NCBI GenBank assembly: GCA_050246815.1 | Contig: JBFWVI010000003.1 | Span: forward strand, 43,267 to 107,266 | Length of the DNA stretch: 64,000 bases | Reading direction: 5' to 3' | From: Bdellovibrionales bacterium | GTDB taxonomy: Bacteria > Bdellovibrionota > Bdellovibrionia > Bdellovibrionales > UBA1609 | Shown here: positions 41,101-44,100 of the stretch, piece by piece | Layout: every line of letters starts with the position of its first letter | Position numbering within the stretch: the stretch's first letter is position 1 | Position numbers: made by a program

Positions 41101-44100
41101 TCCGACGGGACTGCGCACTGTCACCTTGGCCAGCAAAAGTGATCGAAAACTTTTCCGCCAAGTCATCTTGTCTTCCAGCGACGCGGTTAATTTAGTTTTG
41201 ACCGAGTAGGTGCGGGAGATTGCGTTAGAATTTAGTCATTCCAATGAGTATGGCGGCTTTTTTGCCACCTGCCTGGCAGGGGCCGAGTGCCGTCGCTGCG
41301 CGCCTCGTTTCAAAAGTTGAAACACTTGTTTCAAAACCTACTTGCTTCACAGGACGTTCAAAGAGCAAGCTAGTCCCATGGCGGGGAATGAAGGTTTAAG
41401 ACAGCAGCTGACGAACTATTTTGCCCAGATGAGGCAAAAAAATCCGGGCTATTCGCTGCGTGCCATGGCCCGTGTTTTCAAAACCAGTCCCGCGCAGCTC
41501 TCACAGGTTCTTTCGGGTAAGCGGCCGATGAGTCGCAAATTCGTTTTAAGTGTCTCGGACAGACTGGGCCTGTCGCCCCTTGAAACCAAAGAGGCACTTG
41601 AATCACAATGCCCCTCACCTAGATCAAAAATTAGCTTTGAATCGATTGCCGAAGATCAGTTCAAACTGATCGCGGACTGGCATCACTTTGCGATTTTAAG
41701 TTTAGGTGAAACTGCCGACGCAAAAGCGGACCCAAAGTGGATTTCAAAGCGATTGGGCTTGGACTATTACGTCGTCCGCGAAGCGCTAACCAGGCTTCAA
41801 AAGCTTGGGATTATTGAAATCAAAAACGGGCGTTACCGGCAAATCACAAAACCGATCCACACCACTCAAGACATCCCGAGTGCGGCCATTCGTAAAAATC
41901 ATCGGCAAAACTTGGCTCTGGCCAGTGAAAAATTGGAACAAGTCGATGTGGCCGACCGCGAGTTCACATCGATGACGATGGCCATCAGCCGAAAAAAAAT
42001 AGATTTGGCGAAAAAGATGATCAGAAAATTCAAAACCGAAATGTATGAATTTTTGCAGGCAGGAGCAAAAGAAGAGGTTTACACTTTGGCGATCCAGCTC
42101 TTCCCCGTCTCAAAAATTGAACAAGAACAAGAATCCCAAGGAGGGAAAAAATGAAATACACGATGTTGGTCATTTTAACATTTTTGTCTTGGCCAAGCTT
42201 TGCCAATGGTGTGGGGAATGGCGGCGATGAGCTGAGGTTTTTGTTCCAGGAGGGGCGTGGCCACGCCATTCACAAAATCGCTGCTTTGAAAAGATGCTCA
42301 TTCGAAGCCGCAGAGTCAGAAGAGCTGGTCGATTGGATTTTGCAAAGAAAGTACGTCTTGATGGCCGACGTTGAAAATTCACCGCACGAGTGGATCACAG
42401 ACGCACAGTCCACATGCGCCTTTACGCAAACTAAATCACAACACCCGATCACGCTGTCTTTTGAGGCGTGCAAGAATATTTTGACCAAAGAACAGGCCGG
42501 GCGACTATTGATCCATGAATCGGTCCATCATATGGGTGTGAGCTCCGAAAGTTTTGCCGACGAAGTCGCCTACGCCATCTATGGCGCGTCCAATCGTGAT
42601 GTTTGCCCTGAACCCACGGATGACCCCTTTGAGTCGTCAAGTTGCACGGGTTCGCCAATGTCAGAAGAGGCGGCCCTGGCCTATATCCCACGGGGAGAGA
42701 TTGAGTCTGCTGAGATCGCGGCCATGTCGATGCATTCCCGATATCGGGTTTGCCAAGCGCAAACGGGCTGCACGGCTTGGCGTGAGGGTGCTGAATTTGG
42801 TTTTCTGTACCCGGTGACGTCATGCACCGGCTGCGGCAACGATCCGCAAACGGGGTACCGAAACTTTATGGCCAACCAGGCGAAGTCGAAAAACACTTTA
42901 AACTTCCGAATTGGCCTGAAAGGCAAAATCATTCTAGATCTGGATCAGACGCAGCCTTCCGAATCGTGGCCGCCCACCGCGTACAGTTGGCGTTTCATCA
43001 GTCGAAGCATGGATCACAGGCGCGAAATCAGTGTCAGTGAGCATTTTTATGACGCTTATTACGGCTCAGGCCAGCTGGTGCTGGGCGGGCATAATGAATT
43101 GGGAGAATACAGATCCTCAAGCGAGCGCAACAAACAATATCTGGCGCCACTGCGGGGCAAGCTGACCGATCATTGCCTTCGCCTGACCACATCAAACCGG
43201 GTTCAATTGCCCGACGGAAGATGGGTTGAAAATCAGGGTGTCTTGTTCTCGCGCTTTGAAGGAAAATAAGAAGCTGCAGGCATTTAACCTGCGGACTTTG
43301 ATTTTTTCAGATTCTCAGAGATTTTCGATGGCGCGTGCGAGGCCGGCTTTAGGCGCGCGCGCAGGCGTTCAGGCAAATACTCGCTGGTGCCGGGGGGCAA
43401 GTGCAAAACGAATCCGCGCGGCAAAGAAATTTGGCGGATGTATTTGCGGTTTAAATCTAAATTTTGCTCGAGCAGCTTTGTCATGTTCAGGTTGCCCTGG
43501 TCGGCCAGGTGTTTCAGGCGCAAACCACCTTGGGTGATAGTAAAGCGCTCGTGCGGCAAAGCGGGTTCGCGCGCGACAGACGGAAAAGCCACTTCGGAGT
43601 AGCGTTCGGCATACAAGGCGGCCAAAAAACAAGCATAGAAGTTCGAAGAGGCAAATTTAAAATCCCCGCGATGGTAGCGGTCAATGATCGTGGGCAAGTC
43701 GCGTGAGCGGGCGGCTCGAATGGCTTTTTCGATGTTGCCGATGCCGTGGTTGTAAGCGGTCACCGCCAACGGCCAGCTGCCTAGGGCGTGACGGTAGCTG
43801 CGCAGCAGGCGTGCCGCCATATCGGTGGCTTTCAACGGAGAATTCCGTTCATCAATTGCTTCGCTAACAATGCCATAGGCGCGGCCAGTGGCGGGCATCA
43901 CTTGCCAGATGCCACTAGCGCCCACCTTGCTTTCGGCGCGCTCATTGAAGCTGCTTTCAACAAAGGGCATGCGCGTGAGATCCAAGGGTAGTCCGGCGTT
44001 GAAAAAAGTCTCTTCCATATAAGGAAGATAACGGCTGCTGCGGCGAAGACCTGAGATAAAGAAGTCTTTTTGGCCCAACTGCGTGCGCAGCATACCCGCA

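Follow-up and report, generated by a model that had tools for sequence, protein, structure and literature searches.

A DUF4423 regulator coupled to an exported, glycine-tagged partner: a candidate HetR/PatX-like peptide-receptor circuit in Bdellovibrionota

In this analysis, we found that regulators of the orphan family DUF4423, together with an exported neighbor marked by a short Gly-rich tag, make up a two-gene module that is real and broader than first described. The pairing, the tag, the operator in front of the regulator gene, and the code by which that operator is read are well supported by comparative sequence evidence. By analogy with HetR and PatX, we lean toward the view that the hood-like domain of the regulator directly recognizes the tag of its partner, which would make each pair a private, autoregulated peptide receptor.

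The window, by which we mean the whole 64-kb stretch of DNA analyzed, carries one such module on its plus strand. The regulator gene (41378..42154) encodes 258 amino acids that match the Pfam DUF4423 profile with 178 bits (cut-off 30) and the TIGR02147 profile with 110.9 bits (cut-off 50); its AlphaFold2 model has a pLDDT of 90.3. The protein comprises an XRE domain with HigA/XRE matches and a recognition helix at residues 37-46 (41486..41515), an ArsR/HxlR-like winged-helix domain at residues 89-162 (41642..41863), and a hood-like alpha-beta-alpha-beta domain at residues 167-244 (41876..42109). For this last domain, which includes His175 (41900-41902), we propose a role in dimerization and peptide binding. 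The gene overlaps that of its partner by four bases (ATGA), and the profile scores and sequence bear out the earlier note on this DNA in naming the pair a DUF4423 regulator and an exported protein with GNGG and HExxH motifs. Directly upstream of the module lies the gene of a 759-residue exported protein (38930-41209) with a sub-cut-off carboxypeptidase-regulatory-like domain; a lytic transglycosylase gene (43284-44795, minus strand) converges on the partner gene.

The partner (42151..43269) is a 372-residue protein without a Pfam family, modeled with a pLDDT of 78.2. It begins with a predicted Sec-type signal peptide (residues 1-18; 42151..42204), whose cleavage site was placed by eye with the help of a crude hydrophobicity filter. 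The tag N-G-V-G-N-G-G-D (residues 19-26; 42205..42228) would thus form the mature N-terminus and is the proposed ligand; GNGG occupies residues 22-25. In the model, the fold starts at residue 25, immediately behind the tag, with a zincin domain (residues 25-147; 42223..42591) that contains HESVH (residues 122-126; 42514-42528) and E133. The C-terminal beta-barrel-like domain (42661..43266) is exchangeable, with a Kelch propeller in its stead in 7 of 16 homologs. As had been claimed, the Gly/Asp tag and HExxH are kept together among homologs: G24, G25, D26, H122, E123 and H126 are each at least 90% conserved (n=114). The closest fold is that of the M35 aspzincins (deuterolysin, 1EB6; Grifola peptidase, 1G12), and the window partner has both this fold and the HExxH motif. 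It differs from them in that none of the 114 homologs has a Pfam M35 match, and an intact HExxH is missing from the majority of partners across the wider set. The third metal ligand of aspzincins is an Asp in a GTxDxxYG-type motif; the consensus of the partner homologs reads G-I-x-D-E-x-F-A-D, and the conserved acidic residue downstream is E133 (at least 90%).

The genome that holds the window has 18 DUF4423 matches, 17 of them above cut-off, in keeping with the 18 copies counted earlier. The family is present in 55 of 61 genomes of the order and 70 of 81 of the phylum, with up to 44 matches per genome, and the named relatives that carry it are Bdellovibrionota. One homolog resides on a Bdellovibrio plasmid (AP029177.1, 37271-37888), the sole plasmid match among 72,556 records. 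The earlier note had cautioned that its loci were only the top-scoring ones; we therefore took every DUF4423 copy in 15 other genomes (207 loci after removal of one duplicate, L077), and the pairing holds. By the same crude hydrophobicity filter and inspection by eye, rather than by SignalP, a coupled gene whose product starts like a signal peptide follows the regulator at 107 of the 207 loci, and a divergent gene of this kind is present at another 55. At 144 of the 207, a neighboring gene encodes an exported partner that bears a Gly-rich 8-9-mer behind its signal peptide (matrix score at least 8, in-sample), and 51 of the 99 tagged coupled loci have a four-base overlap. Motif discovery among coupled partners yielded G-[GT]-E-x-G-[NG]-G-G-D, and among divergent ones G-G-x-[DS]-G-G-G-G. 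A held-out test on four genomes from other orders gave a score of at least 10 to 38 of 52 partners versus 4 of 273 background proteins, the latter being secreted-looking proteins from 40 arbitrary 20-kb regions; 8 of the 60 held-out loci are without such a partner. In a further taxonomic class, the tag is present in 12 of 24, mostly as [TV]-G-N-[PG]. The two-gene module proposed earlier, an XRE/winged-helix regulator with an exported, Gly-Asn-tagged partner, is thus more strongly backed than before.

Within the genome of the window itself, the enrichment is modest. A matrix trained on relatives gives a score of at least 8 to 5 of the 19 adjacent proteins and to 50 of the other 1230 that look secreted (odds ratio 8, p 0.001); the earlier background of 66 in 3380 genes could not be reproduced because the motif was left undefined there, but an enrichment as such is seen. 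In a held-out scan of this genome, the window tag, a variant of the H175 type, is the best-ranked true partner (rank 3 of 1249). By eye and with a looser motif, 12 of the 18 copies have a tagged neighbor (11 in the earlier count), 10 downstream (7 by a four-base overlap) and 2 divergent. The literal GNGG is far rarer: it occurs within residues 15-60 of 3 of 3125 genes, and the window partner is the only one of the 18 partners to have it.

The tag is independent of the protein that bears it, as the 207 partners fall into 131 BLAST components. In Sec-type partners, its core starts most often 3-4 residues past the inferred cleavage site (39 of 98, by crude prediction). Short tagged partners of 84-103 residues exist; a stand-alone tagged peptide of about 40 residues was absent from 319 loci, in which the shortest tagged partners have 84-89 residues. 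One partner carries tandem tag repeats, with E-G-V-G-N several times (L185:2046-3461). Tandem or shortened DUF4423 genes occur at L068/L077, L037 and L103, and at the latter two, regulators of 175-182 residues are coupled to similar tagged proteins of 84-85 residues.

A FastTree phylogeny of 210 of 226 regulators (those under 225 residues or containing X were left out) comprises a main clade of 105 coupled regulators, a clade of 56 with divergent partners, a GNP-lipoprotein group of 21 and a partner-less clade of 14. Among the relatives, a tagged neighbor is found in 78 of 97 main, 12 of 16 GNP, 36 of 53 divergent and 1 of 13 partner-less loci; 35 of 42 divergent partners carry the tag, which there lies at the 5' side of the regulator. 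Two classes had been described, GNGG-zincins and GNP-lipoproteins. Both tag types are indeed seen, but GNGG, GNP and the divergent GGxDGGG are variants of one tag, and the third class, of 56 loci, had been missed. It had also been said that the GNP loci face glycan-enzyme operons. The four such loci in the window's genome (L003, L004, L005 and L010; contigs C7, C16, C64 and C112 of G000) do face divergent, related operons of exported proteins, but the enzymes were not recovered: no confident Pfam family was found in them, and the four yielded one sub-cut-off pectate-lyase-like match. In relatives, the GNP loci mostly stand without a divergent exported gene. The partner-less clade (L012, G000:C15:33790-34296, and 13 relatives, e.g. 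L059, L071, L083, L087 and L125) is strongly conserved, with about one copy per genome, a near-invariant recognition helix and a conserved hood. Its members may be global regulators or readers of tags in trans.

The earlier note had treated GNGG partners as a zincin class. The four HExxH partners that it counted in this genome are confirmed (L001, L008, L013 and L014), but the domain is optional: within residues 80-300 of the 144 tagged partners, HExxH, HExxY and other HExx forms account for 23 each, and 75 lack an HE site altogether. Kelch, DUF5122 and DUF4382 lipoproteins are among the tagged partners as well. The zincin domain is cargo, and not the conserved link of the module. One cargo family of 71 members (L050, L056, L108, L144, L152 and others) is exported and zincin-like, with the second His of HExxH replaced, usually by Tyr; these proteins are possibly pseudo-enzymes or have a Tyr-ligated site. 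A second exported HExxH protein, untagged, is encoded upstream (L002) or upstream or divergently (L009, L028, L161, L190 and L215).

In front of the coupled genes we found a locus-specific operator of three 7-base arms (direct, inverted, direct), the last of which ends near -43. In the window, it spans 41306..41333 (no strand assigned), with arms at 41306-41312, 41318-41324 (inverted) and 41327-41333 (direct), and stops 44 nt upstream of the regulator ATG. A strict score detects it at 26 of the 104 loci of the coupled clade (0 when shuffled) and at 6 of 3014 genes in the window's genome, 3 of which are DUF4423 genes; a relaxed search requiring a TG start detects 59 of 150 versus 1.0 when shuffled. 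It was found at 0 of 21 GNP, 0 of 14 partner-less and 2 of 55 divergent loci. The window's arm pair, with one mismatch allowed, recurs at five places in its genome, three of them intergenic, including the window site and one before another DUF4423 gene. For four paralogs of this genome, a search for a wider regulon returned no more than 1-5 sites each.

The bases of the arms covary with the regulator. Residues 38, 37 and 39 give the top three signals, followed by 43 and 49, and a simple code emerges: P38 goes with T (32 of 32), S38 with C (9 of 9), H38 with G (4 of 5), K/R43 with G (17 of 20), and E/D43 with C (10 of 13). The window regulator (S37-P38-A39, Q43; arm T-T-T) agrees with it. In tree-aware pairs, 5.0 of 7 changed in the same and 0 in the opposite sense (p 0.06). 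That the XRE recognition helix reads its own operator, in an autoregulatory manner, is well supported by this covariation. ATG-aligned, operator-anchored loci (n=29) share TTG at -36 and TAnnnT at -12, which points to a leaderless, sigma-70-like promoter in the coupled loci; the probable counterpart in the window (41342..41371, plus strand) has a -35-like hexamer at 41342-41347 and a weak -10-like hexamer at 41366-41371, 6 nt upstream of the ATG. The position of the operator just upstream of the -35 element suggests activation.

Covariation with the operator falls in the XRE helix; covariation with the tag falls in the hood. Among the best 50 of 48,161 chains in a structural comparison with the regulator model, residues 167-244 are covered by HetR alone, in two entries; 76 of 76 residues align with an rmsd of 2.1. 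Other searches were less telling: neither the regulator nor the partner model had a Foldseek match at E<=0.001, a second look based on Foldseek had no HetR among the matches listed, and a profile search against PDB sequences had none among the best 60 of 114 matches. The HetR alignments cover the hood alone. The regulator is not a HetR, as it is without the intertwined N-terminal DNA-binding domain and flap; its residues 1-162 match XRE and ArsR-like folds. The HetR hood is described in PMC4649674 as a novel fold to which PatS6 binds as an extra strand, contacted by Arg223. By range offset, this Arg corresponds to about residue 168 of the DUF4423 regulator. For the acidic cleft of HetR (E253, D270, D278), which takes the ligand RGSGR, the putative equivalent strand is R194-x-x-[ST]-[ST]-x-T200, and the tag is without the two arginines.

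Covariation between tag and regulator was assessed in 142 of 157 coupled pairs (tag score at least 7). Tests with z>4 numbered 37 of 1204 in the hood, 6 of 1022 in the XRE domain, 5 of 910 in the winged helix and 0 of 182 in the linker, with residues 175, 167, 171 and 162 strongest. They sit on the helix that, again by range offset, matches the Arg223 helix of HetR, where it flanks the PatS cleft. His175 pairs with [VT]-G-N-G tags and Gln175 with [EG]-G-[GH]-G tags. The H/Q175 switch has happened only a few times: the full tree has 3 changes, and a tree without the hood columns 10. Cargo, however, has been shuffled between regulators. Within the 71-member cargo family, the regulator tree accounts for regulator class with 3 changes, where the cargo tree needs 21; for tag type, the numbers are 11 and 16-17. 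On starred branches within this family, 4.3 of 6 pairs agree and 0 disagree (p 0.125). Tag models built from 77 partners outside the family assign the correct hood class to 46 of 56 members and agree with it in 12.7 of 14 independent sister pairs (branch support at least 80; median p 0.001). The tag tells the hood class with an AUC of 0.93, versus 0.36-0.64 for windows in the signal peptide or downstream of the tag.

The link between motif and regulator had been left unexplained; the hood-like third domain and the operator, both overlooked at the time, supply a proposed mechanism. The XRE helix would read its paralog-specific three-arm operator some 43 nt before its own leaderless start, most likely as an activator. 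Regulator and partner would be made together, by translational coupling or, in the divergent clade, from a shared promoter region, as the gene layout suggests. Export and signal-peptide cleavage would then put the tag at, or close to, the newly formed N-terminus, and, as with PatX, the tag could be clipped and re-imported; less probably, it is read on the unexported precursor. The window's genome encodes seven family-5 peptide-binding ABC proteins. From fold and covariation, we infer that the tag docks into the lateral cleft of the dimeric hood, adding a strand there, and alters DNA binding, the most likely outcome being release of DNA, as with PatS. Such a circuit would track what becomes of a single exported protein and set its abundance.

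The agreement of tag with hood would also follow from linkage, because the DNA of the tag lies right behind that of the hood. Operator, regulator, signal peptide and tag could be swapped onto new cargo as one piece of DNA, with a regulator that just autoregulates and a tag that is an export, sorting or processing signal for another machine. We consider this unlikely, though it is the rival to be taken most seriously: the hood has switched few times independently, the partner-less clade retains a conserved hood, and hood-like domains may be plain dimerization domains. However, a general sorting signal is expected on many exported proteins, and only 4 of the 273 background proteins score for the tag. 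Further, little or no class signal is seen in the stretch that separates regulator and tag, the class-diagnostic residues lie on the hood helix whose HetR counterpart borders the PatS cleft, and the tag is kept in the divergent clade, where it is found at the other end of the regulator gene.

Two other explanations center on the zincin. The tag might be a pro-peptide or latch, in which D26 would act as an Asp-switch-like inhibitor of a secreted protease that the regulator merely controls. The joint conservation of G24, G25 and D26 with HExxH, and a fold that starts straight after the tag, would suit such a latch; it is nonetheless quite improbable, since over half of the tagged partners have no HE site, tags occur on Kelch, DUF5122 and DUF4382 lipoproteins and on proteins of 84-100 residues, and within one cargo family the tag tracks the regulator. 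In the ImmR/ImmA and DdrO/IrrE systems, the gene of an XRE regulator adjoins that of an HExxH...E protein, an arrangement that the present pair recalls, and the zincin might accordingly be an anti-repressor that cleaves the regulator. We hold this to be very improbable. The partner and its homologs start like signal peptides (by crude prediction), which would put them in another compartment than the regulator, out of reach of a cytoplasmic repressor; intact HExxH is the exception among tagged partners; and the M78 (ImmA/IrrE) profile has no match in the 114 homologs, and the fold of the partner is closest to M35. Direct recognition of the tag by the hood is the reading that we prefer.

The regulator belongs to DUF4423 rather than to the HetR or RRNPP families, and it probably works in the manner of HetR/PatX. 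With the HetR system of filamentous cyanobacteria (PatS/PatX/HetN; 4YNL, 4HRI) it shares the C-terminal alpha-beta-alpha-beta hood, a candidate ligand that is a short x-x-G-[small]-G-x peptide, and a Sec-exported precursor to carry it; PatX is exported by Sec, cleaved, and inhibits HetR (PMC12756182). The differences are considerable. HetR uses its DNA-binding domain and flap where DUF4423 proteins have XRE and winged-helix domains; the DUF4423 tag is neutral or acidic and is predicted to head the mature chain of large cargo proteins that are unrelated to one another; and HetR is one master regulator, whereas DUF4423 proteins are many per genome, with private operators in the coupled clade. 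RRNPP receptors (PlcR/PapR, PrgX/cCF10, AimR/AimP) join XRE-type DNA binding to a TPR sensor of a peptide from an exported precursor encoded next door. The XRE-type domain and the proposed sensing of a neighbor-encoded precursor are reminiscent of them; the regulator model, however, contains no TPR domain, PlcR and PrgX give a TM of 0.20, and AimR reaches 17.7 bits, far below its cut-off of 70. Another comparison is with the uncharacterized proteobacterial pair DUF6502 (PF20112) and DUF5666 (PF18914), likewise a regulator-like and an exported protein with a four-base gene overlap and with G[IL]GG[TS]G behind the signal. This layout recurs at all five plasmid loci fetched and at four metagenome loci, with DUF5666 as the partner where annotated or scanned; palindromes lie upstream at the plasmid loci (by eye), and no DUF6502 was found in a viral scan. 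The DUF6502 partner family is fixed, whereas DUF4423 partners vary. DUF5666 partners carry their tag twice. HHalign of DUF6502 against DUF4423 gave E 0.005-0.07 with a probability below 10% (shuffles, E 0.035-0.77), a profile similarity that is only weakly positive and does not establish homology.

Among the papers covered, DUF4423/TIGR02147 appears in one, as the earlier search had also found, as a table entry (PMC12546842); no description of the module turned up in the search listings covered, which exclude most subscription journals, and look-ups returned no link of hood and tag for DUF4423. Supplement file 3 of PMC12546842 lists six DUF4423 members whose proteins are seen in B. bacteriovorus. 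Their time courses differ: Bd3700 is highest at 3-4 h, and Bd3758 rises up to 1 h and then declines, while its neighbor by number, Bd3757, dips and recovers.

A broader generalization, which is possible but somewhat doubtful, is that bacteria widely use the HetR hood as a peptide-receptor module, and that DUF4423, and probably DUF6502, represent a large class of one-regulator/one-exported-protein circuits in Gram-negatives. The exported protein would be made its own signal by the tag, and at least a dozen circuits per cell would be kept apart by the operator code and the hood-tag classes. To our knowledge, peptide sensing through the HetR hood is known only from cyanobacterial patterning. If our proposal is true, HetR-type peptide-receptor signaling extends to predatory Gram-negatives as one of their largest regulator families. 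The orphan family DUF4423 would gain predictions testable in Bdellovibrio bacteriovorus, namely of its DNA site and reading code and of the ligand and the residue that sets specificity, and the orthogonal sets of regulator, operator and peptide would be useful as genetic parts.
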